A stretch of 64,000 nt of DNA. Source: Candidatus Eiseniibacteriota bacterium (lineage in GTDB: Bacteria; Eisenbacteria; RBG-16-71-46; JABDJR01). The stretch spans positions 320,001 to 384,000 of the forward strand of contig CAVXKA010000003.1 of assembly GCA_963762255.1 (NCBI GenBank). Reading direction: 5' to 3'. Below, one piece after another: positions 42,781 to 60,228 of this stretch. The first letter of the stretch is position 1. Every line of letters begins with the position of its first letter. The notes beneath the pieces were generated by a model. That model was not told the DNA's origin, did not search any database, and saw only the letters and a list, made by a program, of their open reading frames with translations. Position numbers and translations under genes: made by a program.

Positions 42781-43138
42781 AACTCCCTCATCACCTTGGC
42801 GTTTGGCCGCCACAAGGCGGGGCCCGCCCCACGACTTGGGGACGAGTCTATCCGAATTCCGACAGATACTTGCACAGTTCGCCATACCCTCACCAATTCG
42901 TTTTCGCGAAGCGGCTGTTCTAGATAGCGTAAGGATGTAAAGCCGACCAAATTTGTAGGCAATGATCCAGTCGCCCCCTCTGGGTCGGATCCCCCACGTT
43001 CGATTTCGAGGTCGGCCTGCGCGCCGCACCACGGCTGGACCGGTCCAATCCTGGTAGAATTGTGGTCACCAACGAGATGGGATCGCAGGCAGCCCGCGCG
43101 GCTCGCCTGCCCGGCGGACATCACAGGGAGTGCACAGC

Positions 43139-46100
43139 ATGCTTGCCAACGGGCTCGCTTCCTCGGCCTCCATCCCCTCTCGGGTCTGGATCCTCGGCGC
43201 CCTGATCGGCGCCTTGGCCGCCGCCGCCGTCCCCGCCGAGAGCGCCATCACCGTCGGCCCCGGTCCCGCCCTCGGAACCGACCGCGCGGGCGTGACATGG
43301 TATCAGGATTTCCAGGACTGGACCCACTCCGACCTGCGGGCGCTGGACGACGCCGGGCTCGGAGACGCCGTCTACGCCTTCTCGGACGGCTACGACGACT
43401 CGCGGGACATGATCGCGTTCTACTACCGTGCGGAGGGCGACTATCTCTACTTCCGCGCCGACCTCTACGACCTCGTCCTGGGAGCCGAGCAGAGCAACCT
43501 CAACCTCTACGTCGCCATCGATTGGCGCACCGGGGGCCAGGCCTGGCTCCCCGACTTTCTCGATGTCCAGACCGACACGCCGTGGGAGGCGTGTCTCGCG
43601 ATCTACCAGAGCGGGACGACGCTGGGCTCGAGCTACAACCTCTGGGACGAGAACTTCAACGTCCTTTCCGGCGGGTATACCGGCGCCTACTTCAACTCGC
43701 AGATCGACGCGGTCGAGTTCGGCCTCCAGCGCGCCAAGCTCACCGCTCTGGGGTGGGATGGAGTGAGCGTCCTTCGCTTCCAGGTCTTCACGACGAAGGA
43801 CAACACCGAGACCTCATGCAGTGGCGGCGGGCGCTCCAGCGACATCACCGACAGCATCGTGGACGACGACCGGGGATGCTCGGACGGCGTGCTCAACGGG
43901 AGCATCTCGTCCACCGACGTCGCCGGGCTCGTCACCTACGCCTCCATCGCCCACGGTAACCAGTCGGTGAACCGGGCCGGGGACATCGGGGCTCACATCT
44001 ACGATCCGCAGTCCAGTACCGGCATCTCCGGAGGCACCGGGTTCCTGCGCACGCTCGATACCCACGAGATCTTCAAGGTCCCGCTCAACATCCATCCCAG
44101 CGGAACCCTGACCATTGCCTGCAACTGGGCGACCCGGCCGACGGGGCCGGCGGATCCACAGGACGGCCCCGCGTTCCTCGCCCGAATCCGGGAATTCGTC
44201 GACAACGATCAATCACAGAGCCCGGGTTCGCTCCTCGGCGGGGTGCTTGCCGAGCACATCCTGCCCTACTTCGAGGGGGAGGTGAACGCGGCCTCGATCG
44301 CGGTGACCGACAGCCTCAACCGCGCGGTCTACGGCCGGACGGCGGCCGAGGTGCAGGTGATGCACACGCCGGAGCGCGTGATCCGCTCGCAGTCGACCGG
44401 CTACTCGCCGCTCGACGGGCACACGTTCGAGGACATCGTCGCGAGCCCCTATGTCGCGACCTATCTCGACGAGATCACCCACCTCCATGGGTGGTTCTAT
44501 CCCGGCGAGTCCTGCCAGCCCGACCAGGGCTACCGGCACAAGCTGCACAAGATCAACGGCGTCTACTGCTTCATGATCAACGACCGCGAGGACCAGGGGA
44601 AGTTCGGGAACCACGACGGCGGCATGGTCATGGACACGCGCTACAGCCTGCTCCAGAAGTCGCTCTACGGAAACTCGAGCGAGATCGTCGTCGTGTTCGA
44701 CGACTGGGAGGCGCTGGCCGGGAAGTCGTTCGATCCCAACGCGGGAACCCCGATCCCCAACAACAACCCGAACCAGTACCACAACACGATCCGCTGGGCG
44801 GCCAACCATCCCTGGATCCGCATCTCGAACCTGAAGGACATCCTGGCCACGGCCCTTGCCAGCCCCTCGGCGTTCGTGATCGATCACGGCTTCCGGTACG
44901 ACCTCGGCATCCAGACCTACGAATGGCTCAAGCACGCCTCCGAGAACTCGTACAACTACTGGTACTACAACCAGAATGCCGGGTTCACCGGCAACGAGCA
45001 GGATTTCTACAACCTGGTGCCGGTGATCACCGGCCCGCAGGGGGACTATCACTCGCGCGGCGCCACACCCGCCAACGATGGGCCGCCGCTTCCGGGTGGC
45101 ATGAAGCACGGCGATCTCAACTCGCCGGGAACGCTCATGTACGAGGCGTGGCATGCGGTGGACGACGCGCCGGCGGGCCGACTCAGGGATCTCGGCGTGT
45201 GGTCCTACCTCGCCATGATCTACGAAACCGCGTGGCACGAGGAAGACCAGGTCGACTACTCCGACACCGACTGCTATGGCAACTGGATCCATCCCGACAA
45301 CTCGTGGGACGGGGTGAACACGTGGGCGTTGCGGCTTCAGAACCACGTCCGCGGGGCGGGCTTCTATTCCGCGGCAGCCCAATGGGCGGAGGATGCCAAG
45401 AACGGGTTGGTCGGGCCGGCAACCGGCGCCACCACGGCCGATCTCGACTTCGACGGCGAGAACGAGTACGTGATCCGCAACAGCCGAGTGTGGCTGGCGT
45501 TCGAGAAGTACGGCGCCCGTTGCGTACTGGCCGCGGCTTACGATCCGGTGACGCACGATGCGCAGGTGCTGGTGGGCGCCCCTCTGACCAATCCCTCGGC
45601 CCCGGGAGAGGAAGAGTATGTGGGGACCGCCGCGTTCCGTTGCTCCGCGTTCAAGGAGATGAACGGGGGCAGCTATGCCGACGCGGTGTACTCGGCCACT
45701 ACGGTCGCAGGAGGGTGGCGGTTCACGAGTCCCGACGGCGCGGTGGTCAAGACGATTACGGTGCCCGACGGGGGCTACGACGTGATCGCGGCCTACGCCG
45801 AGACGGTTTCAGGAAGCCTCTACGTCCGCCTCGGGCTGAACCCCAATCCGGGCGATCTCTTCCTGAACGGAGATGCGCACCTGACCGGAATCTACGACGG
45901 GACGTACAACACGTACACGCTGGCCAATTCCGCCGGAGGCGCGGTGCATCTGCGGCTCGGCGCCGCGAGCTTCAACGCATCCCCCGCCGACGCCGGCGCC
46001 AACCGCCGCAACCTCGCGCTGACCGAGCAGGTCGAGGTTTACGGCGACGGAGCGTTCACGCTCATCATGACTTTGATCCCGGGCCGCACCGAGACGACCG

Positions 46101-46402
46101 GCGTGACCGAGGCGGTGCGGCTCCCGGGCTTCACCGTCTTCGGGCCGTCGCCGTCACCGTCGCCGGCGTCGTCGATCCTGAGCTTCCGGCTCGACGAGAC
46201 CGCGGACGTCCGCATCGCGGTCGCCGACGTCTCCGGACGCGTGGTCCTGGTGCAGGAGTTGGGGCGGCGCGAGCCGGGCGAGACCTCGGTGCGCCTCACC
46301 CCACGAGGCACCGACGGCCGCGAGCTGCCCGCCGGCATCTACTTCGTGCGTGTCGACGCGGGGATGCTCTCGGCCACGCGCAAGTGGGTGATCGTGCAGT
46401 AG
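43139..46402 (+). CDS. secreted GH57-like glycoside hydrolase with C-terminal FlgD-Ig/T9SS-like domain
   Basis: Signal peptide; HGNQ, HTPERV and FDDWE resemble GH57 conserved regions; C-terminal DVSGRVV...GRELPAGIYFVRV...TRKWVIVQ. Confidence 0.65.
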   Translation: MLANGLASSASIPSRVWILGALIGALAAAAVPAESAITVGPGPALGTDRAGVTWYQDFQDWTHSDLRALDDAGLGDAVYAFSDGYDDSRDMIAFYYRAEGDYLYFRADLYDLVLGAEQSNLNLYVAIDWRTGGQAWLPDFLDVQTDTPWEACLAIYQSGTTLGSSYNLWDENFNVLSGGYTGAYFNSQIDAVEFGLQRAKLTALGWDGVSVLRFQVFTTKDNTETSCSGGGRSSDITDSIVDDDRGCSDGVLNGSISSTDVAGLVTYASIAHGNQSVNRAGDIGAHIYDPQSSTGISGGTGFLRTLDTHEIFKVPLNIHPSGTLTIACNWATRPTGPADPQDGPAFLARIREFVDNDQSQSPGSLLGGVLAEHILPYFEGEVNAASIAVTDSLNRAVYGRTAAEVQVMHTPERVIRSQSTGYSPLDGHTFEDIVASPYVATYLDEITHLHGWFYPGESCQPDQGYRHKLHKINGVYCFMINDREDQGKFGNHDGGMVMDTRYSLLQKSLYGNSSEIVVVFDDWEALAGKSFDPNAGTPIPNNNPNQYHNTIRWAANHPWIRISNLKDILATALASPSAFVIDHGFRYDLGIQTYEWLKHASENSYNYWYYNQNAGFTGNEQDFYNLVPVITGPQGDYHSRGATPANDGPPLPGGMKHGDLNSPGTLMYEAWHAVDDAPAGRLRDLGVWSYLAMIYETAWHEEDQVDYSDTDCYGNWIHPDNSWDGVNTWALRLQNHVRGAGFYSAAAQWAEDAKNGLVGPATGATTADLDFDGENEYVIRNSRVWLAFEKYGARCVLAAAYDPVTHDAQVLVGAPLTNPSAPGEEEYVGTAAFRCSAFKEMNGGSYADAVYSATTVAGGWRFTSPDGAVVKTITVPDGGYDVIAAYAETVSGSLYVRLGLNPNPGDLFLNGDAHLTGIYDGTYNTYTLANSAGGAVHLRLGAASFNASPADAGANRRNLALTEQVEVYGDGAFTLIMTLIPGRTETTGVTEAVRLPGFTVFGPSPSPSPASSILSFRLDETADVRIAVADVSGRVVLVQELGRREPGETSVRLTPRGTDGRELPAGIYFVRVDAGMLSATRKWVIVQ

Positions 46403-48272: not shown

Positions 48273-48363
<91 letters not shown>

Positions 48364-48461: not shown

Positions 48462-48809
48462 TCAGGCGGGGATCGGTTCGTGCATCTCGCCGTTGGGGTA
48501 GTACGTGCGGTCGAAGACGATCACATGCTTCGTCTCGTCCTCGACCATCATGCGCACCCAGTGCTTGGCGTCGGGCGCGATCACGTAGAGCCGCTCGCTC
48601 AGCCGCTCCGCGGCATCGTAATTATCGATAGGGACCCAGGCCCCCCAGAGGGCGTCCGTGCTGTGAACATGGGCGGTGTAATCGGATTCTTCCATCAGAG
48701 ACCGCAGCCCCGCGAACACGGTCTGGCAGTCCTCGGACTGAATGCAGATCGTGTAGTTGCCGCGGAGCGCGCAGGCCCGGTAGTCGCAAGGCTTCTGGCT
48801 CTTTCCCAT
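48462..48809 (-). CDS. hypothetical protein (115 aa)
   Basis: GGAGGGG RBS then MGKSQKPC...; lower-GC upstream region; no recognisable motif. Confidence 0.55.
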   Translation of the reverse strand: MGKSQKPCDYRACALRGNYTICIQSEDCQTVFAGLRSLMEESDYTAHVHSTDALWGAWVPIDNYDAAERLSERLYVIAPDAKHWVRMMVEDETKHVIVFDRTYYPNGEMHEPIPA

Positions 48810-48918
48810 GTCGCATCCCCCTCCCACAATTCCACCTTCCAGCAAATATTCTGCCGTTTCTTCGGGGGGGATCTCTAGAACCTAATGTCGATACGAGTTA
48901 TCTACAATCGACAATGAC

Positions 48919-49075
48919 CTGGGATGCTCCCGCTCGGCGCTCCGCGCCTCGCAGGAGATCCCGCAACCGCAATGCAAGACCTTGGCGGAGGGACTGGGAT
49001 GCTCCCGCTCGGCGCTCCGCGCCTCGCAGGAGATCCCGCAACCGCAATGCAAGAACTTGGCGGAGGGACTGGGAT
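48919..49075 (-). repeat. 75-bp tandem repeat of tRNA-Ser(TGA) 3' end plus GNA-capped hairpin
   Basis: CTGGGAT at 48919, 48994 and 49069 (period 75); two near-identical units; distal unit truncated after ATCCCAG. Confidence 0.92.
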
Positions 49076-49145
49076 TCGAACCCAGGGAGCCTTTCGGCTC
49101 ATCGGTTTTCAAGACCGACGCCTTCGACCGCTCGGCCATCCCTCC
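49058..49145 (-). tRNA. tRNA-Ser(TGA)
   Basis: TCGGT CT TGA AA ACCGA anticodon arm, long variable arm, ends GCCA. Confidence 0.95.
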
Positions 49146-49342
49146 CGCAGGGGCCTTCGCCCACGAGGAACCGAAGCTTACCCCAGGGCGACCTCTCACG
49201 TCCCCGGGTCCGCGCCGCACTCGATCTGGTCGACGGTCGGGAACGCCTCTCCCCCCGCAACTTCCCGCGACGCGCTGCCCCCCCCCGCTAAACCGAAGTC
49301 CGGCGCGGAACTCCCCCTGCAGGTGTGATAGCCTCATCCGTC

Positions 49343-50089
49343 ATGAGCCCGCTGTATGACTGGGATGAGGGCGAGTTTCTCTCGCCCGAGGAGGAGAGGA
49401 TGATCGACGAACTCGAGGCCATGCTGCGCCCGCCCGTACTTCCGATGGCGCCCTACCCCGCCAAAGCCATCACGCTGGCCAGCGGCGAGATCATGGTCGT
49501 GCGCCAGGCTTCGGTGGACGAGGTCGACGCCATGCTGAGGTACATTCAGCCGCTTTCGTGGCTGAAACGTGACTTCTACGACATCGTGTCGGCAAGGCTC
49601 TTCGCAGAACTGCTCGGCTGGAAGACCTATCGTGTCCGCAACGAATACTGCCTGGTCGGCGTCATCGACGGCGTCTTGGCCGGCATCGTCAACGGCCGCA
49701 TGTTCGACGAACAGCACGGCATCAGCTACCACACGCTCGCGCTCAAGCGCGGGCTGCGCGTGGGCGCGCATCTCTTTGCGGCGAAGATGGAGCACCACAT
49801 CGAGTACCTCGGCCAGGATGAGGTGTGGATCGTCGCCGAGAGCCCGATCGGCCACCGGCGCTGGATGATCGAGTACCCGCTCGACACCAAGTTCGAGATC
49901 CAGCACGAGCTGGGCGGCGCACCGTCCTGGATGCTCTCCCGCGAGACCTACTTCAAGGCCAAGTCGCGATTGGTGAGCGGCACTCGCCCGGTGTCCGACG
50001 AACTCCTCGCCAAGTCCTATCCGCTCAAGGAGCCCGACCTGCGCACGATGCTCGTGCAGATCGACGACACGCTGGAGGCGCGGCTATGA
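49343..50089 (+). CDS. GNAT-fold N-acyltransferase-like protein
   Basis: Pattern VVRQAS...CLVGVIDGVLAGIV...LKRGLRVGAHL resembles GNAT motif A; ATGA overlap with the thiolase; start uncertain. Confidence 0.55.
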   Translation: MSPLYDWDEGEFLSPEEERMIDELEAMLRPPVLPMAPYPAKAITLASGEIMVVRQASVDEVDAMLRYIQPLSWLKRDFYDIVSARLFAELLGWKTYRVRNEYCLVGVIDGVLAGIVNGRMFDEQHGISYHTLALKRGLRVGAHLFAAKMEHHIEYLGQDEVWIVAESPIGHRRWMIEYPLDTKFEIQHELGGAPSWMLSRETYFKAKSRLVSGTRPVSDELLAKSYPLKEPDLRTMLVQIDDTLEARL

Positions 50090-51270
50090 GAGACGTCGCC
50101 ATCGTCGGAGTCGGATCGACGCAGTTCGGGCGGGCGCAGTGGAGCCTGCTCAAGATGATGGCCGAGGCGTCGAACGACGCGGTCAAGGACGCCGGCCTAG
50201 GCAAGAAGAAGATCGACGCGGTCTATGTGGCCAACATGGGCTCGGCGCGGAACAACCGGCAGGCCGGTCTCGCCAGCGCGCTGGTGGACCGCCTGAACCT
50301 CTACCCCGCCGCCGCCGACACCGTCGAGAACGGTCCGGCCTCCGGGGCATCTGCGGTCAAGAACGGGTTCTACGCGATCGCCTCCGGCATGTGCGATCTG
50401 GTGTTGGTCTGCGGCGGCGAGCGCATGCGCGAGGTGAACAATTTCGAGGCGACCGAGTTCGTCTCGTTCCTGTCCCACCGCTACGCCGAGTACGTCTACG
50501 GCATCACGCTGCCGTCGCTGGCCGGCATGTTCGCGCGGCTCTACATGCATCGTTACGGGGTCACCGCGGAGCATCTCGCGATGGTGGCGATCAAGAACCA
50601 CGCGAACGGGGTCCTCAACCCCAAGGCGCACCTGCGCGCCCCGATCACCATGGAGGGGATCCTCACCGGCCCCGACGCCATGATGAACAACCCGTGGGTG
50701 GCGGATCCGCTTCGCTTCTACGACTGCTGCCCGGTGAGCGACGGAGCCTCGGCGCTGTTGCTCGCACCTGCCGCGATGGCCAAGGAATTCGGCAAAGCCC
50801 CGGTCAAGATCGCCGGCATGGGCCAGGCCACCGACACCCAGACCGTCCACGAGCGGCCCGATCCGACCGAACTCACCGCGGTGCGGCTCGCCGCGGAGAA
50901 GGCGTTCAAGATGGCGGGGCTCGCGCCCAAGGACATCGGCGTGGCCGAGCTGCACGACGCCTTCACGATCCTCGAGATCGCGGAGAGCGAAGAGGCCGGA
51001 TTCTTCAAGAAGGGCCAGGGCCACAAGGCGCTGGAGCGCGGCGAGACCAAGATCGGCGGGAAGCTGCCGATCAACCCGTCCGGCGGGCTCAAGGCGCGTG
51101 GACATCCCGTCGGCAACACCGGCGTGTCGCAGATCGTGGAGCTGGTGCTGCAACTGCGCGGCGAGGCCGGCGACTATCAGGTTCCGAACAAGCCGAAGAA
51201 CGGTTTCGCGGTCAACTTCGGCGGGTTCGGCAATAACGTGCTCGCCACCGTGCTGCAAGGGGGGATGTGA
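50086..51270 (+). CDS. SCP2/archaeal-type thiolase-family protein lacking catalytic cysteines
   Basis: MRDVAIVGVG, KNHANGVLNP, CCPVSDGA, ELHDAF, INPSGGLKARGHPVG; nucleophile site reads VENGPASG. Confidence 0.88.
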   Translation: MRDVAIVGVGSTQFGRAQWSLLKMMAEASNDAVKDAGLGKKKIDAVYVANMGSARNNRQAGLASALVDRLNLYPAAADTVENGPASGASAVKNGFYAIASGMCDLVLVCGGERMREVNNFEATEFVSFLSHRYAEYVYGITLPSLAGMFARLYMHRYGVTAEHLAMVAIKNHANGVLNPKAHLRAPITMEGILTGPDAMMNNPWVADPLRFYDCCPVSDGASALLLAPAAMAKEFGKAPVKIAGMGQATDTQTVHERPDPTELTAVRLAAEKAFKMAGLAPKDIGVAELHDAFTILEIAESEEAGFFKKGQGHKALERGETKIGGKLPINPSGGLKARGHPVGNTGVSQIVELVLQLRGEAGDYQVPNKPKNGFAVNFGGFGNNVLATVLQGGM

Positions 51271-51271
51271 G

Positions 51272-51610
51272 ATGGCCCGCACCGTGGATGCCGCCAAGTG
51301 CAAGGGTTGCGGCAAGGTCTCCTATCCGATGCACTTCTACTGCCCCGCCTGCGGGGCCACGAAGTTCGAGCCGGTACCGGTGGAGGGAGAGGGGAAGCTC
51401 CTGACCTGGACGCGGGTGTATACCCTGCCCCTCGACTACTCCGATCTCTACATCACGCTCGGGATCGTGGAGCTGGACATGGGCGTGCGCGCCACCGGCC
51501 GCCTGGATATCGCCGAGCCCGAGATCGGTGCGCGGGTACGCGCGCGGGTCGGCAAGGTGCGCGAGATCAACGGCAACGATGTGACGGGTCTGATCTTCAG
51601 CACGGTGTGA
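51272..51610 (+). CDS. DUF35/ChsH2-like Zn-ribbon OB-fold thiolase partner
   Basis: KCKGCG...YCPACG, GEGKLLTWT, GIVELDMG; directly after the thiolase. Confidence 0.88.
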   Translation: MARTVDAAKCKGCGKVSYPMHFYCPACGATKFEPVPVEGEGKLLTWTRVYTLPLDYSDLYITLGIVELDMGVRATGRLDIAEPEIGARVRARVGKVREINGNDVTGLIFSTV

Positions 51611-51638
51611 CCGTCGGGCGCCGCGCGGGAGGGATACG

Positions 51639-52496
51639 ATGAGCAGCTTCCGCTATGAGCGGCCCGGGAGTGTCGCGCAAGCCACGGCGCTTCTGGCCGA
51701 AGCGCCCGGTCGGGCGCGCGTGCTGGCCGGGGGGACCGATCTCATGGTCGCCCTTCGCTCCGGCGCCGCGCGTCCCGAGCTGGTGGTGGACGTGAAGCGG
51801 ATCCCCGAGCTCTCGGAGATCCGCTGGACTCCTGAAGGCGCGCTTGTCTTGGGCGCGTGCGTGCTGGTGCAGGACGTCGCCATGGATCCGCGGATCCGTG
51901 AGACGTTTCCCGCGCTCTCCGAAGGCGCGCTCGCCATCGGATCGCTCCAGATCCGCTCGCGAGCGACGATCGGCGGCAATCTGGCCAATGCGTCGCCGTG
52001 CATGGACACCGCTCCCCCGCTGCTCATCCTGAACGCGCGGATCCGCGCGGCGGGCCCGCAGGGCGAACGCGAGATCCCGCTCGCCGAGTTCTTCCGCGGC
52101 GTGAAGCAGACGGCGCTCGCCGCCGACGAGATGCTCACGGCGGTGCTGGTGCCCAAGCCGCCTGCCGGGTTCCGCGCGGCATTCGACAAGATCAAGCGCG
52201 TCTACGGCCACGACCTGGCGCTGGTGAACGCGGCGGCGGGCTTCGACCCGGGCGCGGGCACGTTGCGCGCCGCCATCGGAAGCTGCGGCATCACCCCCGT
52301 GCTCACTCCCCTCCTCACCGGCATCGACCCGGCCGGCGACGCCCGGGAGGCAGGAACGCGCCTGGGGGCGCTGGCGCTCGAACACATCTGCCCCATCGAC
52401 GACGTGCGCTCCTCCGCCGAGTACCGGCGCGACATGACCGTCGCCCTCTGCCGGCGGATGGTGGCGCGGCTCCTCGGCGGGTCGAGGAAACGATGA
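51639..52496 (+). CDS. xanthine dehydrogenase family FAD-binding subunit (CoxM-like)
   Basis: LAGGTDL, QIRSRATIGGNLANASP, PIDDVRSSAEYR. Confidence 0.92.
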   Translation: MSSFRYERPGSVAQATALLAEAPGRARVLAGGTDLMVALRSGAARPELVVDVKRIPELSEIRWTPEGALVLGACVLVQDVAMDPRIRETFPALSEGALAIGSLQIRSRATIGGNLANASPCMDTAPPLLILNARIRAAGPQGEREIPLAEFFRGVKQTALAADEMLTAVLVPKPPAGFRAAFDKIKRVYGHDLALVNAAAGFDPGAGTLRAAIGSCGITPVLTPLLTGIDPAGDAREAGTRLGALALEHICPIDDVRSSAEYRRDMTVALCRRMVARLLGGSRKR

Positions 52497-55369
52497 TGAA
52501 GACCCACGCAATCACGCTCACCGTCAACGGTGCGACGTCCACGCTGGAAGTGCCGGCGGAGCGAACGCTGCTCGAGCTGCTCAAGGGCGGCTTCCACCTG
52601 CAAAGCGTCAAGGGGGGCTGCGGCATCGGCGAGTGCGGCGTATGCACCGTCGTCATGAACGGCCGCCCGGTGAACGCGTGCCTCGTGCTCGCGGTGGAGG
52701 CGGACGGCGCGGTCATCGAGACCGCGGAAGGCATGACCGAGGACCTCGGCGTGCTCTCCGACCTCCAGCAGGCCTTCATCGACTTCGGCGCCGTTCAATG
52801 CGGCTTCTGCACGCCGGGGATGCTCAACTCCGCGCGCGCGCTGCTCGCGGCAAACCCGCATCCGTCGCGTGAGGAGATCGTCGAGGCGCTCTCCGGCAAC
52901 CTGTGTCGATGCACCGGCTACGAGCCGATCATCCAGGCGGTGGAGGCTGTGGCGTCGGGAACGTACCGCGCCGCCGAGCCGCTGTCGGGCCCGTTCGTCG
53001 GCGGCGGGGCCCCGCGCTTGGACGCGGCGGCCAAGGTCACCGGCTCCGCGGTTTTCGTGCACGACATGACGCTTTCGGGGATGCTTCACGCACGCATTCT
53101 CACCTCTCCGCATCCCGCCGCGCGCATCAAGCGCATCGACACCTCCAAGGCCCGCGCGATGCCGGGGGTCCGCGCCGTGCTGACCGGCGCCGATCTCCCT
53201 TACAAGCTCGGCCTCTACATGGAGGACAAGGACATCCTCGCCCGCGGGGTGGTGCGCCATCAGGGCGAAGCGGTGGCCGCGGTCGCCGCCGAGACGGTCG
53301 CGCAGGCGCGCGCCGCGTGTCGCGCGATCGAGGTGGAGTACGAGCCGATCGAAGCGGTGCTCGACGTCGAGGAAGCGCTCCGCGAAGACGCGCCGCAGGT
53401 GCACCCCGATCTCGCGAACTACTCCTGGATGAAGGGGGTCTTCTTCCCGCAACCCGGCAAGAACATCGCCCACCAGCAGAAGATTCGCAAAGGGGACATC
53501 GCGAAGGGCTTCGCCGAGGCTGACCGCGTGTTCGAGTTCAGCTTCCGCAACCCGCCGGTGCAGCACGTGCCGCTCGAGACGCATACCGCTATCGCCACAG
53601 CGCGCGCGGACGGCGAGGTCGAGATCATCACCTCGGCGCAGTCCCCCTTCACCGTGCGGCACCTCTTCTGCCACACCTTCGCCATGCCGCTCCAGAAGGT
53701 GCGGGTGAAGGTGCCCTATGTCGGTGGCGGCTTCGGCGGCAAGGCCGGCATCCATCTGGAGCCGTTGGTGTACTGCTTGTCCAAGGCCGCGGGCGGCCGA
53801 CCGGTGAAGATCACGGCCACGCGCGAGGAGGAGTTCAACACGCTTCCCTCGCGGCAGGGGCTGCGCAGCCGCATCAAGACCGGGGTGAGCAAGGACGGAC
53901 GCATCGTCGCGCTCGAGATCGCGTATCACTGGGACGCCGGCGCCTATGCGGACTACGGCGTGAATATCGGGCGCGCTGCCGCCTACTCGGGCGCGGGGCC
54001 GTACGTGGTGCCCAACTGCAAGCTCGATTCGTACGTGGTCTATACGAACAAGATTCATGGCACGGCCTACCGAGGCTTCGGCCATCTCGAAGTGCTCTGG
54101 GGCATCGAGCGCAACATGGACCTCGTGGCGCGGGCGCTGGGGATGGACTCCTTCGAGTTCCGCATGAAGAACCTGCTCCGTCCCGGCGAGACCACCATCA
54201 CCGGCGAACTCGTGACCGAGAGCCACGGCAGGCCAGATGAGTGCCTGCGTCTGGTGGCCGAGGCAATCGGCTGGGATCCCAAGGCCCGCGCCTCCGCGCC
54301 GGTTGCGCCGGGTTCGGGCGTGGTGCGCGCGAAGGGGCTGGCCATGGTCCACAAGGCGCCGGCCATGCCTACTTTCACCTCGTGCTCGGCCACCATCCTC
54401 ATGAACGGCGACGGCTCGGCCAACGTGCTGGTGAGCGGCGTGGATTACGGTCAGGGCACCTATACCACGCTGGCGCAGATCGCCGCTGACGAGCTCAAGT
54501 TGCCGCTCAACAAGATCCGGGTCCCGTGGGACAGCGACACCGATTTCACACCCTACGATTGGCAGACCGTGGCGAGCCGCTTCGCGGTGATGGGCGGAAA
54601 CGCGGTCATCGAAGCCGCGCGCGACTGCCTGCGCCAGATCAAGGAGGTCGCCGCGCAGGCGCTCCAGGCACCGGTCGATCAGATCGAATGCGGGGACGGC
54701 AAGGTCTGGACGCGGGGAGCGCCTGATCACGCCCTCGACTACAGCAAGATCGTACTCGGTTACACCTATCCGAACGGCAACAGCATCGGCGGGCCGGTGA
54801 TCGGACGCGGGCGCTACATCGCGACCGGGCTCACCAACCTGGACCCGGAGACCGGGCAGGGGCTCCCCGCTCTCAACTGGACCTACGGCGCGCATGCGGT
54901 GGATCTCGAGGTGGACACCGATACCGGACACGTCCGCGTGCACACCTTCGCTTCCGCGTTCGACGTCGGGAAGGTGCTCAACCTCCAGCAGTGCAAGACG
55001 CAGGTCATCGGGGGTGTGATTCAGGGGCTGGGATCGGCGGTCATCGAGAAGTTCGTGTTCGACAAGGGGCGGCTCGTCAACAACTCCTTCGTGGACTACA
55101 AGATTCCCACCGCGAAGGACATCCCGACGGAGATGAAGCAGTTCTTCGTGGAGACGCCGCATCCGCAGGGGCCGTACGGGGCGCGCGGCGTCGCCGAGCA
55201 CCCGATGATCTCGGTGCCGAGCGCGGTCGGCAACGCGGTCGCCAACGCCACCGGGGTCGAGTTCTTCGAGCTGCCGTTGGATCCGGAGCGGATCTACCTG
55301 ACGCTCAAACGCGCCACGGAGGGGAAGCCGCAGCCTGCGACGGACGCGGCCCGGGTGGCCAGGAAGTAG
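52493..55369 (+). CDS. molybdenum hydroxylase, fused 2x[2Fe-2S] and molybdopterin subunits
   Basis: GCGIGECGVC, QCGFCTPG, NLCRCTGY, GGGFGGK, AYRGFG, YGQG, TVASR, GVAEHP. Confidence 0.92.
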   Translation: MMKTHAITLTVNGATSTLEVPAERTLLELLKGGFHLQSVKGGCGIGECGVCTVVMNGRPVNACLVLAVEADGAVIETAEGMTEDLGVLSDLQQAFIDFGAVQCGFCTPGMLNSARALLAANPHPSREEIVEALSGNLCRCTGYEPIIQAVEAVASGTYRAAEPLSGPFVGGGAPRLDAAAKVTGSAVFVHDMTLSGMLHARILTSPHPAARIKRIDTSKARAMPGVRAVLTGADLPYKLGLYMEDKDILARGVVRHQGEAVAAVAAETVAQARAACRAIEVEYEPIEAVLDVEEALREDAPQVHPDLANYSWMKGVFFPQPGKNIAHQQKIRKGDIAKGFAEADRVFEFSFRNPPVQHVPLETHTAIATARADGEVEIITSAQSPFTVRHLFCHTFAMPLQKVRVKVPYVGGGFGGKAGIHLEPLVYCLSKAAGGRPVKITATREEEFNTLPSRQGLRSRIKTGVSKDGRIVALEIAYHWDAGAYADYGVNIGRAAAYSGAGPYVVPNCKLDSYVVYTNKIHGTAYRGFGHLEVLWGIERNMDLVARALGMDSFEFRMKNLLRPGETTITGELVTESHGRPDECLRLVAEAIGWDPKARASAPVAPGSGVVRAKGLAMVHKAPAMPTFTSCSATILMNGDGSANVLVSGVDYGQGTYTTLAQIAADELKLPLNKIRVPWDSDTDFTPYDWQTVASRFAVMGGNAVIEAARDCLRQIKEVAAQALQAPVDQIECGDGKVWTRGAPDHALDYSKIVLGYTYPNGNSIGGPVIGRGRYIATGLTNLDPETGQGLPALNWTYGAHAVDLEVDTDTGHVRVHTFASAFDVGKVLNLQQCKTQVIGGVIQGLGSAVIEKFVFDKGRLVNNSFVDYKIPTAKDIPTEMKQFFVETPHPQGPYGARGVAEHPMISVPSAVGNAVANATGVEFFELPLDPERIYLTLKRATEGKPQPATDAARVARK

Positions 55370-55378
55370 GAGGCGCGC

Positions 55379-56957
55379 GTGTCCGGCTTCGTGCTGGTTC
55401 GCAAGGATTCGTACCACGACTCGGTGCTCCTCATGCGCCTCTCCCAGGCGCTGAAGGGCTTGGCCGGCGTCGAGGACGCGACGGTCGCGATGGGCACCCC
55501 GCAGAACCGCGCGCTCCTCGAAGCGCAGGGGTACGGCGGGGACGCGCTCGCCGCGGCCGGTCCCAACGATCTCGTGATCGCGGTGACGGGGAGGCGCGGA
55601 CACCCCGCGCGCGGTGGAGGAAGAGTTCGAGAAGCTCCTCCACGCGGAGCGACCGGCAGGCGTGGAGGACGTTCGCCCCACGTCGCTCGCCGCGGCGGTG
55701 AAGGCGCATCCCGAGTCCAACCTCGTTCTCATCTCGGTGCCCGGTGAGCACGCCGCGCGGGAAGCGCGCCGAGCGCTCCATCTGGGCCGGCACGTCATGC
55801 TCTTTTCCGACAACGTCACCGTGGCGGACGAAGTCGCGCTGAAGAAGGAAGCGGTCGAGCGCGGGCTCCTCATGATGGGGCCCGACTGCGGCACGGCGAT
55901 CGTCAACGGCCTGCCGCTCGGCTTCGCCAACGCGGTGCGCCGCGGCGCGATCGGCATCGTGGGCGCGGCCGGCACCGGCATCCAGGAAGTGTCGTGCTGC
56001 ATCCATCGCATGGGTGGAGGCGTCTCGCAGGCCATCGGTACCGGCGGGCGCGATCTCTCCGAAGCGGTGGACGGCGCGATGATGCGTCTCGGCATCGAGG
56101 CGCTCGCCGCCGATCCCGCCACGCGCGTGATCGTGGTCGTCTCGAAACCCCCGGCGGCGTCGGTCGCGAATTCCGTCATCGCCGCGCTCGCGGCCACGGC
56201 GAAACCCTGTGTGGCGCACTTCATCGGCGACGAGCCGCGTGTCGACGACACGGCTCACGGCGTCTTCTTCGCCGAATCGCTCTCCGGCGCCGCCGAGAGC
56301 GCGTGCCGCCTGGCCGGGCTGGACATCGCCACGACGACCTCCGCGCCAGACGCGGCACAGGTCGCCGCGCTTGCCGCGCGCCTCTCACCGGGCGCCGCCT
56401 TGCGCGCACTCTTCTGCGGCGGCACCACCGGCCAGGAGGCGCTCGTGCTGCTCTCACGGGCGGGCATGGAGGTGCGCTCGAATCTTCACAAGCACGGCGC
56501 GCTGCGCGTCGACGGCACCGAATCCGTGCGCGGGCATGTACTGCTCGACCTGGGCGACGACGTGTTCACGCGAGGCCGGCCGCATCCCATGATCGAGCCC
56601 GAGCTACGAAACGAGCGCCTCGCGGTGGAGATGGGCGACCCCGACGTAGGCCTCCTTCTCTTCGACTGCGTGTTGGGCTACGGCGCGCATCCCGATCCCG
56701 CCGGGGTCCTTGCCGAGGGCGTGAACCGCGCCCGCGATACAGCGCGCACCCGCGGGCGCGATCTCGTTGCGGTGGCCTCAGTGACGGGGACGCCGGACGA
56801 TCCGCAGGATTCCCGCGCGCAGACGCTCGCGCTGGAGGCGGCGGGCATCGTGGTCGCGGCCGACAACCGCGCGGCCGCGGCGCTGGTCGCCGCAGCGCTC
56901 ACCGCGGCGTCCACAGCACCGGGCTCCACAAAGGCGACCCCGAAAGGGCGGGCGTGA
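55379..56957 (+). CDS. fdrA: FdrA/AllF-like acyl-CoA synthetase-family protein, +1 frameshift at 55588-55591
   Basis: YHDSVLLM, MGTPQN, ISVPG, LFSDNV, MGPDCGT, GTGGRDL, DLGDDVFTRGRPHPMI; span 1579 nt = 3n+1. Confidence 0.85.
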
Positions 56958-58399
56958 TGGATACGCGCAAGCTCGAGTCGCTCTTCGGTGAAGAACTCAA
57001 CGTCATCAACGTCGGGCTCCCCTCCTTCGCGGCCGAGCTGCGGCGCGCCGGCGGGAACGCGGTGGACGTCGACTGGCGCCCGTCCGCGGGAGGCGATCCG
57101 CGGGTGCAGGACGCGCTCGACGTTTGTCTCACCCCCGACGGGGCCGTGCGCGACGACATCGCGGTGGCCACGCGGCGTTCCGTAGATCGCCTCCTCGAAG
57201 CGAAGCCCACGATCACCGGCATCGGGCGCGCGCTCGACGTGATCCCCGGCATGCGCAAGGAGTTGATCCTGCACGCCGGACCTCCGGTGACATGGGATCG
57301 CATGAGTGGGCCCACCCGAGGCGCGGTCATGGGAGGGCTCGTCTACGAGGGCCTGGCCAAGACCCCTGAAGAGGCGGAGCGACTCGCCGCGTCCGGCGCG
57401 GTGACCTTCGAGCCATGCCACCACCATGCAACGGTGGGACCGATGGCGGGGATCGTCACCGCATCGATGCCGGTGTGGATTCTCGAGAACACCGCGTTCG
57501 GCAACTGCTCCTACGCGACACTGAACGAAGGTCTCGGCAAGGTGCTCCGCTACGGCGCCTACAGCGACGAAGTGATCGACCGCCTGCGCTGGATGGAGCG
57601 CGTGCTGGCCCCGGCGCTCGCGGAGACACTCGCGAGTCACGGGCCGCTCGACCTGCGCAGCCTCATCGCCCAGGCCTTGCAGATGGGCGACGAGGTACAC
57701 AACCGCAACCGTGCGGCAACATCCCTGCTCATCCGCGCGCTCGCGCCGCATCTGGTGCGCACGCGGTTCGCGGCCGACGACATCGCCCAGGTCCTGCGGT
57801 TCCTGGACGGCAACGACCACTTTTTCCTCAACCTCTCGATGGCGGCTGCCAAGTCCGCGTTGGACCCGGCGGCGGGGATCGCGGGCTCGAGCATGATCAC
57901 CGTCATGGCGCGCAACGGCACCGACTTCGGAATCCAGGTGTCCGCGCTTCCTGGACGCTGGTTCACCGCGCCGGCGCCGATGGTGGAGGGTCTCTATCTC
58001 CCCGGCTTCACCGCCGCCGACGCCGCACCCGACATCGGCGACTCCGTCATCACCGAGACCGCCGGCCTCGGTGGGATGGCCATGGCCGCCGCTCCCGCCA
58101 TCGTGCAGTTCGTGGGTGGAAGCGCCTCGCAGGCGCTCGCCTTCACCCGCCGCATGTACGGGATCACGCTCGCCGAGCACCCGACGTACAAGATCCCTGC
58201 GCTCGATTTTCGCGGCACCGCCACCGGCATCGATCTTCTCAAGGTGGTCGAGACCGGTGTGGTGCCGGTCGTGAACACCGGCATCGCTCACAAGCGGCCC
58301 GGCGTCGGCATGGTCGGCGCGGGCCTCGTCAAGCCGCCTTTCTCATGTTTCGCGCAGGCACTTCTCGCCTTCGCGGAATCGCTCGAGCCTTCCGCGTAG
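56957..58399 (+). CDS. YlbE/AllG-like DUF1116 protein
   Basis: LHAGPP, PCHHHATVGPMAG, NEGLGKVLRYGA, MGDEVHNRN, NDHFFLN, DIGDSVITET. Confidence 0.88.
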   Translation: MDTRKLESLFGEELNVINVGLPSFAAELRRAGGNAVDVDWRPSAGGDPRVQDALDVCLTPDGAVRDDIAVATRRSVDRLLEAKPTITGIGRALDVIPGMRKELILHAGPPVTWDRMSGPTRGAVMGGLVYEGLAKTPEEAERLAASGAVTFEPCHHHATVGPMAGIVTASMPVWILENTAFGNCSYATLNEGLGKVLRYGAYSDEVIDRLRWMERVLAPALAETLASHGPLDLRSLIAQALQMGDEVHNRNRAATSLLIRALAPHLVRTRFAADDIAQVLRFLDGNDHFFLNLSMAAAKSALDPAAGIAGSSMITVMARNGTDFGIQVSALPGRWFTAPAPMVEGLYLPGFTAADAAPDIGDSVITETAGLGGMAMAAAPAIVQFVGGSASQALAFTRRMYGITLAEHPTYKIPALDFRGTATGIDLLKVVETGVVPVVNTGIAHKRPGVGMVGAGLVKPPFSCFAQALLAFAESLEPSA

Positions 58400-58432: not shown

Positions 58433-59425
58433 ATGAAGCTCATCGACCTGACCGTTCCCCTCGGCATCGGCACCCCCGCGTGGCCCACCTACGAACCGCT
58501 GCAGATGAAGTACTTCAAGCGGCTCGCACCCAACGGCGCCAACGGGCAGATCATCACCCACTCCAACCACGTGGGCACCCATCTCGACGGCGAGATCCAC
58601 TTCTACACACCCGGCAAGGACATCGCCGCCCTGAAGCTCGACTACCTCGTCGGCGAAGGCGTGGTCGTGGATCTCTCCGATTGCTGCGGCGATTACGACG
58701 TCTACACGTCAAAGATGGTGGAGGATCGCGCCGAGGTGCACGACGGCGACATCCTCATCGTTCACACCGGCTACCATCACTTCGGTTGGGACCAGCCCAC
58801 CGCGGACGAGATCAGTTACATGGTCAAGCACCCCGGCCCCGACCGCGAGTTCGCCGATTGGGCAAAGCGTCGCAAGATCCGCTGGATCGGCGTGGACTGC
58901 GGAAGCGCGGACCATCCGATGAACACGATCATCCGCGATTGGATGCCCCGCCAGGCGCGTCAGGCCGATGCCCACTTCCGCAAGAAGTACGGCAAGCCCT
59001 TGGCCGAGTACTACGACGACTCCAAGTACCAACTCATGCACCTCGAGATGTTCAACCACGGGATCATTCACGCCGAATGCCTGGGCGGAGACATCGACCT
59101 GCTACTGAACCAGCGGGCCACGATCGGCTGCTTCCCGTGGCGGTTGGTGGACGGCGAGTCGTGCATCTCTCGGATCGTCGCGTTCGTCGACGACAAGCGC
59201 TACGACGAGCTGATGAAGGTGAAGGCGCAGTACACGCTCACCAAGTGGGGCGACATCGCGGGATCGCTGGCGCCGCAGCTCCACGGCAAGAAGCGCCCGG
59301 GACCGGCGGCGGCGAAGAAGGCCGCACCCAAGCGCATCATTGCCTCCAAGAGCAGTGCCGCCCCCAAGGCCAAGGCCGTCCCCAGGCGCGAGGCCGCGCC
59401 CAAGGCCAAGAAGTCCGGACGCTGA
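58433..59425 (+). CDS. cyclase-family metal hydrolase (kynurenine formamidase/isatin hydrolase-like) with Lys/Ala-rich tail
   Basis: IDLTVP, HVGTHLDG (HxGTHxD), GVDCGSAD, HAECLGG; GGAGG RBS. Confidence 0.85.
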   Translation: MKLIDLTVPLGIGTPAWPTYEPLQMKYFKRLAPNGANGQIITHSNHVGTHLDGEIHFYTPGKDIAALKLDYLVGEGVVVDLSDCCGDYDVYTSKMVEDRAEVHDGDILIVHTGYHHFGWDQPTADEISYMVKHPGPDREFADWAKRRKIRWIGVDCGSADHPMNTIIRDWMPRQARQADAHFRKKYGKPLAEYYDDSKYQLMHLEMFNHGIIHAECLGGDIDLLLNQRATIGCFPWRLVDGESCISRIVAFVDDKRYDELMKVKAQYTLTKWGDIAGSLAPQLHGKKRPGPAAAKKAAPKRIIASKSSAAPKAKAVPRREAAPKAKKSGR

Positions 59426-59433
59426 GACACGCG

Positions 59434-60228
59434 GTGCGCGTCGGCCCGCTCGCGGCCGGCGCGCTCACCCTCGGCGCGCGGGGACGCGTGGTGTCCGTGC
59501 ACCGGCAGGCCGTGAACCTCCGCCTTGAGGACGGGCCGCTGGTAGCCCTCCTCCCCGAGGGGACGGCGCTTCACCCCTGGGCGCTCGCCGCTCCGCTCGA
59601 CTGTTCGCGCCTCGCACCGGGCGATCCGTTCGATGTCTCGAACGACGCTCTCGAAGTCGGTTCGCTTCGCGTCACGCTGGAAGGAGCGGAGACCGTAGAG
59701 CTTCGACTTCGCGCGCGGCCGATGGTCTGGCCCGCGGGCGCGATGATGACGATCACCGCGTTGCTCGTGCGGCGCCCGCACGACAGCCCCTTCGATGCGG
59801 TGCTCTCCGAGACACTGGCTCGTTTCAGCGCCGGTGGCGATACGCGCGATCTCCTCGATCTCGTCGGCCTCGGCGAGGGCCTCACCCCATCCGGAGACGA
59901 CATCTTGGTGGGAGTCCTGGCCGGACTGGACGCGCTCGCGGAGATTCCCGGCGGCGCGAGCGTGGAACGCAGCGCGCTCTGCGCCACGCTCACGCCCGAA
60001 CACCTCGCACGCACGAACGCGCTCTCCGCGCAGATGCTCGCGGCGGCCTCGGCGGGCCTCTACGCGGAACCTGTCCTTTGGATGGCCCAAGCACTCTCAG
60101 CGGAGCCAGGGGCGATCGATCAAGCGGCGAAGGCGCTCCTCGCCGTGGGCCACCGCTCCGGCGAAGATACGCTGCGCGGCATGGCCATGGCGCTCGGAAG
60201 GGCGCGAAGCCGCGCCGCCTACCTATAG
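59434..60228 (+). CDS. YlbF/AllH-like DUF2877 protein
   Basis: LVGLGEGLTPSGDDILVG, RTNALS, VGHRSGEDTLRG; start approximate. Confidence 0.85.
   Translation: MRVGPLAAGALTLGARGRVVSVHRQAVNLRLEDGPLVALLPEGTALHPWALAAPLDCSRLAPGDPFDVSNDALEVGSLRVTLEGAETVELRLRARPMVWPAGAMMTITALLVRRPHDSPFDAVLSETLARFSAGGDTRDLLDLVGLGEGLTPSGDDILVGVLAGLDALAEIPGGASVERSALCATLTPEHLARTNALSAQMLAAASAGLYAEPVLWMAQALSAEPGAIDQAAKALLAVGHRSGEDTLRGMAMALGRARSRAAYL

Follow-up and report, generated by a model that had tools for sequence, protein, structure and literature searches.

A three-gene cluster with a thiolase-fold protein that lacks both catalytic cysteines

We analysed a stretch of 64,000 nucleotides from Candidatus Eiseniibacteriota bacterium (hereafter the window, meaning this whole stretch), which is GC-rich (62-70%). 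Our subject is a thiolase-fold gene, the gene immediately upstream of it and a DUF35 gene immediately downstream, together with the operon that these three genes head:

49325-50089, + strand: protein modelled with a GNAT fold, 254 aa from the first GTG (AlphaFold2 (AF2) model and Foldseek)
50086-51270, + strand: thiolase-fold protein, 394 aa (translation, Pfam and motif reads)
51272-51610, + strand: DUF35 protein, 112 aa (Pfam OB_ChsH2_C 4.8e-9, zf-ChsH2 1.1e-4)

The ATG of the thiolase-like gene overlaps the stop codon of the upstream open reading frame (ORF) as ATGA, and the DUF35 gene starts one base after the thiolase-like stop. Pfam matches the 394-aa protein to Thiolase_N (1.2e-30) and Thiolase_C_1 (4.9e-46). 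Its motifs are VENGPASG at residues 80-87, CCPVSDG at 214-220, HDAF at 290-293 and GHP at 339-341. The solved proteins closest to it in sequence are 7yvy (5.2e-83), 6esq (1.3e-74) and 4yzo (1.5e-72), and in ungapped HMMER alignments Pro84 falls exactly under the Cys of 'eaaCasg' in both 7yvy and 6esq, while Ala292 falls under the Cys of HDCF in 6esq. A preliminary description of this DNA had read VENGPASG as a replaced nucleophile loop and HDAF as a replaced HDCF, with GHP intact, and had paired the protein with a DUF35 partner; these alignments confirm the former and the two Pfam domains on the adjoining gene the latter. It had not described the GNAT-fold partner upstream or the larger conserved operon headed by the thiolase-like/DUF35 pair.

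Measured against the thiolase fingerprints listed in PMC3406046, the protein has no nucleophilic Cys of CxS, and N377-F378-G379 stands at the place of the CxG of classical thiolases, leaving no acid/base Cys. The His residues of GHP and HDxF, which belong to the enolate oxyanion hole, are both present. The 50086-51270 protein is thus an archaeal/SCP2-type thiolase fold without either catalytic cysteine, and to judge from these residues it cannot carry out thiolysis through an acyl-Cys intermediate.

Curated family models place the protein broadly. It passes a single NCBIfam model, the subfamily PRK06064 ('thiolase domain-containing protein'; 426.4 against a cut-off of 420), and falls below the equivalog AcCoTHIOL_METTL (acetyl-CoA acetyltransferase; 360.5 against 600). 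By these models the pair is not BbsAB (BbsB equivalog 179.7 bits against 750; BbsA 33.2 against 250), and the lipid-transfer-protein models give the thiolase-like protein 185-214 bits against cut-offs of 424-469. In the DUF35 protein a zinc ribbon (C10-x2-C13...C24-x2-C27) is followed by an OB fold, and each of the four Cys is kept in all 7 orthologues aligned.

The AF2 model of the thiolase-like protein has a predicted local distance difference test (pLDDT) score of 82.8, with low-confidence stretches at 131-139, 201-216 and 337-339. Its nearest structure is 6esq (Z 55.8, root-mean-square deviation (rmsd) 2.0, 384 aligned, 39% identical), followed by 7yvy (Z 52.6) and the Leishmania SCP2 thiolase (Z 52.4). 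PhlC-type acylases score 51.9-52.4, BbsB 51.6 and MucB 51.2, and 4yzo aligns with Z 49.9 (rmsd 1.8, 346 aligned, 40% identical). Lower in the ranking are TbSLP (5ab7, malonyl-CoA structure; Z 45.8, rmsd 2.8, 375 aligned), Ltp2 (6ok1; Z 44.8, rmsd 2.1, 358 aligned) and Sal (9myr; Z 44.5, rmsd 2.8, 373 aligned).

The loss of both cysteines is fixed and marks a distinct clade

Fixation of the altered motifs was assessed in the query plus the best 120 of 7699 homologues, which are 69-98% identical to it. All 121 sequences have [VIL]ENGPASG and all 121 have HDAF, which rules out a chance event or a sequencing error; the ENGPASG loop noted in the preliminary description is thus a property of the homologues too, and with HDAF it persists in relatives from Treponema that are 53-56% identical. 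The best 120 homologues are 370-417 aa long and include no fused forms, longer and shorter length ranges not having been searched. Because the identity of representatives in a library clustered at 50% identity drops from 63% for the best (519 bits) to 46% for the next (328 bits), the close family is a tight group.

Among the 135 aligned representatives in which position 84 is occupied, 82 have Cys there and 53 have another residue (Ser 22, Pro 9, Gly 8, Asp 7, others). Cys292 tracks Cys84, being present in 59 of the 82 representatives with Cys84 and in about 2% (roughly one) of the 53 without it, so the two losses are coupled. Ala292 also occurs in 20 of the 82 proteins that keep Cys84, 7yvy being one solved example, so HDAF alone is not diagnostic.

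The cysteines of CCPVSDG are commoner alongside Cys84 than after its loss: Cys214 and Cys215 are found in 83% and 52% of Cys84 keepers and in 60% and 25% of Cys84 losers. This argues that they are ancestral and not compensatory; 6esq, a true thiolase, reads HCSPVSDG at this place. In 20 of 20 sequences at 44-87% identity the residues E81, N82, P84, A85, S86, G87, H290 and D291 are invariant, as are A292, F293, G339, H340, P341, N377, G379 and G380. Judged by this conservation, the former active site is strongly constrained and not decaying.

We built a FastTree phylogeny of 140 rows, comprising 135 representatives, the query among them, that are at least 340 aa long and have position 84 occupied, together with five added family members; its alignment kept the columns of the cysteine-loss trait itself. 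The query falls in a clade of 32 rows, all without Cys84 (18 Ser, 14 Pro), with Shimodaira-Hasegawa-like (SH-like) support of 99, and position 292 is Ala or Met throughout. Within it the GNAT-associated members form a group of 6 rows (support 97), and a representative with the motif strings of 4yzo (P0164) is also placed inside the clade. Given this supported placement, the cysteine-less state is old and diversified and not the product of recent decay. In this tree the cysteine-less proteins form a distinct, monophyletic branch within the archaeal/SCP2-type thiolase fold, in line with the distinct subfamily that the preliminary description had suspected.

Some Ser-type cysteine-less relatives are longer, at 498-539 aa (P0138, P0159, P0199-P0201); Pfam finds no family in the extra C-terminal residues, about 140, of the two that were scanned (P0138, P0201).

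A GNAT-fold partner and a predicted three-protein complex

The product of 49325-50089 matches nothing in Pfam or NCBIfam, and its 2731 homologues, most of which start at about residue 7 or 22 of our reading, are all named 'hypothetical protein' or left unnamed. Its AF2 model (pLDDT 83.7) was compared with the PDB by Foldseek, and the matches listed are GNAT acyltransferases, with a best E of 8e-7 and 263 at E <= 0.001; the template-modelling scores are moderate (0.45-0.63; on the target 0.5-0.63). The nearest Atlas clusters are named 'putative N-acetyltransferase'. On the evidence of this model the protein has a GNAT fold. The acyl-CoA (coenzyme A thioester) pyrophosphate-binding motif A of GNAT enzymes is Q/R-x-x-G-x-G/A, and an invariant segment of the window protein, R142-G143-x-R145-x-G147, resembles it without fitting exactly.

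We compared the cluster with 14 related loci, the first seven from Acidobacteriota, Eisenbacteria, Actinomycetota, an uncultured bacterium and Treponema and the other seven from the window's phylum. The GNAT-like gene lies directly 5' of the thiolase-like gene in all 13 loci that have upstream DNA (6 of the first set and 7 of the second). When the GNAT-like chain was modelled with the thiolase-like and DUF35 chains, the ipSAE interface score was 0.75 (runs of 0.75, 0.73 and 0.77), the best of three controls scoring 0.00. The runs share at least 79% of contacts, with partner pLDDT of at least 86. Of 80 solved complexes 58 attain a score of 0.75, as do 2 of 110 mismatched pairs; this calibration is only rough here because custom alignments and three chains were used. 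The prediction supports, short of showing, binding of the GNAT-like protein to the thiolase-like protein.

The predicted interface on the thiolase-like chain comprises residues 16-23, 118-120, 183-203 and 211-212, and in it loop residue 200 faces the invariant segment 143-152 of the GNAT-like chain. Inside the stretch 183-203 lies a 7-residue insertion (190-196). All 18 members of the GNAT-associated clade carry it, those from Treponema included, and the two nearest outgroups lack it. Among the other 136 representatives it recurs only in P0123, which groups with the GNAT-associated clade in the tree. Insertion and GNAT-like partner therefore co-occur.

When longer proteins were searched for fusions with the GNAT-like protein (Rosetta-stone approach), three matches came up. 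Two of these have both GNAT-like and thiolase-like segments but were rejected as fusions, because the segments are broken up by Arg-rich stretches of the sort that GC-rich DNA gives when translated out of frame. In several relatives of the operon, among them an Acidobacteriota contig (L009) and P0393/P0394, many frame changes in the assemblies make the GNAT-like and thiolase-like genes appear fused, which is an artefact.

The operon downstream of the trio

The three genes are followed by six more on the same strand, tightly spaced, for a total of about 11 kb. The operon is bounded by two tRNA-Ser genes upstream and by complex I genes downstream, both on the other strand:

48273-48363 and 49058-49145, - strand: tRNA-Ser genes (anticodons GCT, TGA), just upstream of the operon
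51639-52496, + strand: FAD-binding subunit of a xanthine dehydrogenase (XDH)-family molybdenum enzyme (Pfam FAD_binding_5 3.7e-49, CO_deh_flav_C)
52493-55369, + strand: fused [2Fe-2S] and molybdopterin-binding subunit, 958 aa (Pfam Fer2, Fer2_2, Ald_Xan_dh_C, MoCoBD_1, MoCoBD_2)
55379-56957, + strand: allF/fdrA-type gene in two frames (Pfam CoA_binding, Ligase_CoA)
56954-58399, + strand: AllG-type subunit (Pfam AllG 3.7e-100, 334 bits)
58433-59425, + strand: cyclase/arylformamidase-family metal hydrolase (Pfam Cyclase 8.6e-32)
59434-60228, + strand: AllH-type subunit, start codon uncertain (PF11392 AllH)

The fused molybdenum subunit is 74-82% identical in the closest loci. The best PDB match of its molybdenum-binding part is the alpha subunit of 4-hydroxybenzoyl-CoA reductase (5.6e-97), from which no substrate was drawn, as no curated equivalog passes; the FAD subunit likewise reaches no NCBIfam equivalog at cut-off. 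The cyclase-family hydrolase has weak PDB matches to kynurenine formamidases (8e-7).

The downstream part of the allF/fdrA gene scores 432.4 bits with NCBIfam FdrA against a cut-off of 433, and PF11392 AllH matches over 59860-60195 with 81.6 bits (cut-off 25). AllF (FdrA), AllG and AllH family genes are thus found together, and a carbamoyltransferase activity is putative; in E. coli, AllFGH is the oxamate carbamoyltransferase, which forms carbamoyl phosphate from oxalurate (PMC11326118).

A scan of 48800-52000 for promoters and terminators gave nothing above the shuffled expectation. ORF translations over the tRNA-Ser stretch hold a repeated peptide segment, which suggests a direct DNA repeat. 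Upstream, at 43130-46402 (+ strand), lies a gene for a secreted-type protein of 1090 aa with a C-terminal FlgD-Ig / Por_Secre_tail sorting domain, suggesting a type IX-like secretion signal in this organism.

None of the public runs holds half or more of the sampled words (best share 0.25). A 7243-nt contig from the metatranscriptomic library X17 covers 49325-55530 with 470 letter differences and 4 gaps (about 92% identity), a weak hint that the genes from the GNAT-like gene through the molybdenum subunit are co-transcribed in a relative. Contigs of RNA libraries prove neither transcription nor a single transcript.

Conservation and distribution of the operon

The same gene set recurs in all 14 related loci, where the flanks allow. 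XDH-family genes accompany the trio in 14 of 14 loci, the match in one of them (L004) being only weak (29%), upstream and on the other strand, and AllF or AllG is found in 12 of 14; the flanks of the other two end too early. The Treponema-like version has an altered gene order and an added GntR regulator. Carbamate kinase lies inside both Treponema clusters, and the window's genome has a carbamate kinase elsewhere. On the flanks of the Treponema cluster lie genes for a sugar ABC transporter, a MobA-like gene and, on the other strand, one for an AMP-binding enzyme; no nucleobase transporter was found there.

Within the window's phylum the GNAT-like marker was found in 23 of 201 genomes searched (16 of 121 high-quality genomes), patchily across genera. 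The sources of relatives include Eisenbacteria, Acidobacteriota, Actinomycetota, Riflebacteria, Sumerlaeota, Bipolaricaulota and Treponema.

In the full-text literature we found no GNAT/cysteine-less thiolase/DUF35 trio and no such operon, supplements and most subscription journals not being covered. The paper on the reductive uric-acid pathway (PMC12507026) has no mention of thiolase, DUF35, FdrA, cyclase, GNAT or oxamate, and the available extracts of the AllFGH paper (PMC11326118) mention no thiolase, cyclase or xanthine dehydrogenase neighbours.

Pro-type relatives in Asgard archaea

In the Asgard phylum to which locus L007 belongs, a match at E <= 1e-100 was found in 19 of the 81 genomes. 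At eight of eight loci a VETGPS[SA]G/HDAF orthologue directly follows a carboxyltransferase (HMGL-like plus PYC_OADA) and a biotin carrier:

L007:3869-7158, also L008 and L048-L053: Asgard carboxyltransferase-biotin carrier-thiolase-like operon

No DUF35 gene was detected at these eight loci. The operon may encode a biotin enzyme with a thiolase-fold acyl-CoA subunit. Four further Asgard loci hold [TIV]E[SN]GP[SA]SG proteins without the carboxyltransferase and biotin carrier genes. Methylmalonyl-CoA mutase adjoins the thiolase-like gene in two of the four (L054:5922-10172 and L056:3753-8211), the order in L056 being classical thiolase, thiolase-like gene, DUF35, mutase. As gene neighbourhoods, these contexts point to carboxylated acyl-CoAs. 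Beside the Thorarchaeota gene lies a giant ORF with only a weak CsrA match.

Proposed function and alternative explanations

By analogy with known cysteine-independent enzymes, we tentatively favour, as something a little short of an even bet, a subunit that forms an enolate without thiolysis, most plausibly to decarboxylate a malonyl-type substrate, and that would act within a GNAT/thiolase-like/DUF35 complex. The analysis shows which residues are present, which clade the protein belongs to and how the genes are ordered, and it predicts an interface; from these we infer the complex in vivo, its CoA substrate and its reaction. The GNAT-like, thiolase-like and DUF35 products would most likely assemble into one complex, laid out like the thiolase/HMG-CoA-synthase/DUF35 complexes with a GNAT-fold acyl-CoA enzyme in place of the synthase. 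The thiolase-like subunit would bind an acyl-CoA made or used by its GNAT-like partner and turn it into an enolate without the help of a cysteine, most plausibly by decarboxylating a malonyl-type thioester. The operon would serve a probably anaerobic route from a ureide or N-heterocycle to carbamoyl phosphate and an acyl residue.

Enolate chemistry without acyl transfer is proposed because an acyl-enzyme is impossible but both enolate-stabilising His residues are kept. The backbone N-H of the nucleophilic residue is half of a second oxyanion hole, the one for acyl transfer, as described in the Zoogloea thiolase literature, and Pro cannot supply it. The enolate oxyanion hole of thiolases consists of a His/Asn plus the GHP His (PMC3406046), and the window protein retains these residues as H290 and H340, each invariant in the 20 sequences compared above. 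Precedents for such chemistry are the KSQ domains, in which Cys is replaced by Gln with both His kept and which decarboxylate malonyl or methylmalonyl units (PMC7327777), and TbSLP, an SCP2-thiolase-like protein that slowly decarboxylates malonyl-CoA (PMC12329534).

Several observations weigh against this proposal. Cys215 is invariant in 18 of 18 close-clade members and, from that conservation, could have a role, and the conserved loops of the former active site could equally serve a structural or ligand-binding purpose. The hint of (de)carboxylation comes from relatives that are only about 43-47% identical, since neither a biotin enzyme nor a mutase is encoded in the bacterial operon. The molybdenum subunit reaches no curated NCBIfam equivalog. 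Finally, the allF gene is in two frames: the frame of 55379 gives about the first 70 residues, and that of 55614-56957 gives the remainder. As to this last point, four relatives (L001, L042, L045, L046) have a single ORF, and contigs of four of four public runs are one letter shorter at 55588 (X1, X2) or 55592 (X17, X18), within the region of the frame change (near 55588-55592); this points to an extra assembly base or a strain-specific frameshift.

The main alternative, which we consider rather unlikely on balance but a serious rival, is that the thiolase-like protein is a pseudoenzyme that, with DUF35, scaffolds the GNAT-like subunit or adds to its CoA site, all chemistry being done by the GNAT-like subunit. 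Both cysteines are gone, and the interface that sets the invariant GNAT segment against thiolase loop residue 200, itself a prediction, would suit such a role. DUF35/thiolase assemblies are described as hubs that hold other enzymes (bioRxiv 10.1101/2024.07.05.601840; PMC12960953), and the Friedel-Crafts acylase complexes MucABC and PhlABC each hold one thiolase-fold subunit without the catalytic tetrad (PMC12960953), their inactive HMG-CoA-synthase-like PhlA and MucA offering the parallel. A scaffold does not, however, account easily for former catalytic loops that are invariant over 44-87% identity, or for a position 84 that is fixed as Pro instead of drifting. Related Pro-type proteins also occur in other operons without a GNAT partner, which argues for an activity of their own.

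A more specific version of the decarboxylase proposal, improbable in its full detail, takes the Pro-type cysteine-less proteins in general as new (methyl)malonyl-thioester decarboxylases or carboxyl-transfer subunits. In the Asgard operons the thiolase-like protein would stand in for the 12S subunit, of crotonase fold, in a biotin transcarboxylase or decarboxylase. In the bacterial complex malonyl-CoA would be the product of the GNAT-like subunit, formed from an N-malonyl amide or ureide such as the malonamate or ureidomalonate that barbiturate could yield; its decarboxylation to acetyl-CoA by the thiolase-like subunit would pull the unfavourable GNAT step. The operon would then encode an anaerobic, oxidative pyrimidine-type fermentation in which a molybdenum hydroxylase is followed by a ring-opening hydrolase and an AllFGH-type phosphorolysis to carbamoyl phosphate, with ATP gained from carbamoyl phosphate and from acetyl-CoA.

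The preliminary description had inferred a non-thiolytic reaction like that of Ltp2. Its first half stands, in that no acyl-Cys thiolysis is expected; the analogy to Ltp2 fares poorly, and we regard a retro-aldolase of the Ltp2/Sal kind, cleaving a beta-hydroxyacyl-CoA, as very unlikely. The window protein does share with Ltp2-ChsH2 (6ok1) and Sal-Shy (9myr) the SCP2-thiolase-like fold, a DUF35 partner of the same kind and the absence of the nucleophilic Cys (PMC12329534), and a His could in principle act as the base. Ltp2 and Sal catalyse non-thiolytic C-C cleavage in steroid catabolism, Ltp2 with the catalytic Y294-D-H-F plus Tyr344 and Sal with Y302-D-C-Y and the essential Cys304 (PMC12329534). 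Here, by contrast, the place of the catalytic Tyr of YDHF/YDCY is taken by His290 and that of Sal Cys304 by Ala292, and the counterpart of Ltp2 Tyr344 is His340 of GHP, matched by its 50-residue spacing only. The DUF35 of both aldolases is a domain of a MaoC hydratase; ours is a stand-alone protein of 112 aa, Pfam finds no MaoC hydratase among the operon genes, and the gene context is neither steroid degradation nor beta-oxidation. The aldolases also rank below about 20 thiolase or acylase entries in structural similarity, and the scores with the lipid-transfer-protein models lie far below cut-off.

An acyl-transferring thiolase or acyltransferase with another nucleophile, such as Cys215 of CCPVSDG or Ser86 (20/20), is scarcely credible despite the invariance of both residues in close relatives, as the distribution of Cys214 and Cys215 marks them as ancestral and Pro84 removes the backbone N-H of the second oxyanion hole as well.

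The system would add a thiolase-fold subunit with enolate machinery but without any acyl-transfer Cys, and the thiolase-like protein probably does chemistry known for no thiolase. The GNAT-like family would gain a context, and an operon of about 11 kb conserved across several phyla couples a molybdenum hydroxylase to AllFGH genes of the carbamoyl-phosphate-forming type.

Comparison with known systems

The closest systems in both sequence and structure are the archaeal acetoacetyl-CoA thiolase complex (6esq/6et9), the 6esq thiolase being from Methanothermococcus, and the Pyrococcus thiolase PFC_04095 (7yvy). HDxF, GHP and the DUF35 partner are common to the archaeal thiolase/HMG-CoA synthase/DUF35 assembly and the window system, whose three-protein assembly is a prediction. 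A DUF35 protein with a four-Cys zinc ribbon and an OB fold is found beside the thiolase gene here as well; an HMG-CoA-synthase-like third subunit is not. Unlike the archaeal thiolase, the window protein has Pro84 for Cys, Ala in HDxF and the 7-residue insertion at 190-196, and its presumed third subunit has a GNAT fold where the archaeal complex has HMG-CoA synthase. The operon here also reads as catabolic.

ST0096 of Sulfolobus tokodaii (4yzo, function unknown) likewise lacks both cysteines, with VDNTSGSG and HDMT. It differs in having Ser at the nucleophile site (here Pro), Met at 292 (here Ala) and no insertion, and no GNAT partner of it is known to us. Apart from a structural comparison (PMC6392133), we found no functional mention of ST0096.

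KSQ or chain-length-factor ketosynthases and TbSLP share with the window protein the absence of a nucleophilic Cys and an intact enolate oxyanion hole, and they decarboxylate malonyl thioesters. KSQ domains have Gln at the site, act on substrates bound to acyl carrier protein and are only distant kin. In TbSLP the motif is YDCF and the kcat is very low, and partners of the DUF35 or GNAT kind are absent in both cases. The resemblance is a mechanistic likeness and not family membership. In the Mycobacterium smegmatis protein TLP1, of thiolase fold, the nucleophilic Cys is replaced by Gly and there is no thiolase activity (PMC3406046). TLP1 also lacks NEAF, GHP and CxG, is monomeric and has a C-terminal beta-barrel, whereas the window protein keeps HD-F and GHP.

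PhlABC and MucABC (5m3k, 9vbo) are, like the system proposed here, repurposed tripartite thiolase-fold/DUF35 complexes. PhlC and MucB retain the catalytic Cys (Cys88 and Cys87) and have lost HDxF (PMC12960953). The window protein shows the opposite pattern, Cys lost and HDxF kept, and thus does not belong with these acylases. Their third subunit is an inactive HMG-CoA-synthase-like protein, the counterpart here being the GNAT-fold protein. From its genes and their order, the window system appears to be a thiolase/DUF35 assembly that has been put to another use and has gained a partner of a new kind. Such assemblies are turning out to be modular hubs, with known examples among Friedel-Crafts acylases and steroid aldolases and in the synthesis of mevalonate and of archaeal fatty acids; a GNAT-fold enzyme, if the predicted complex is real, would be the fourth kind of partner for such hubs.

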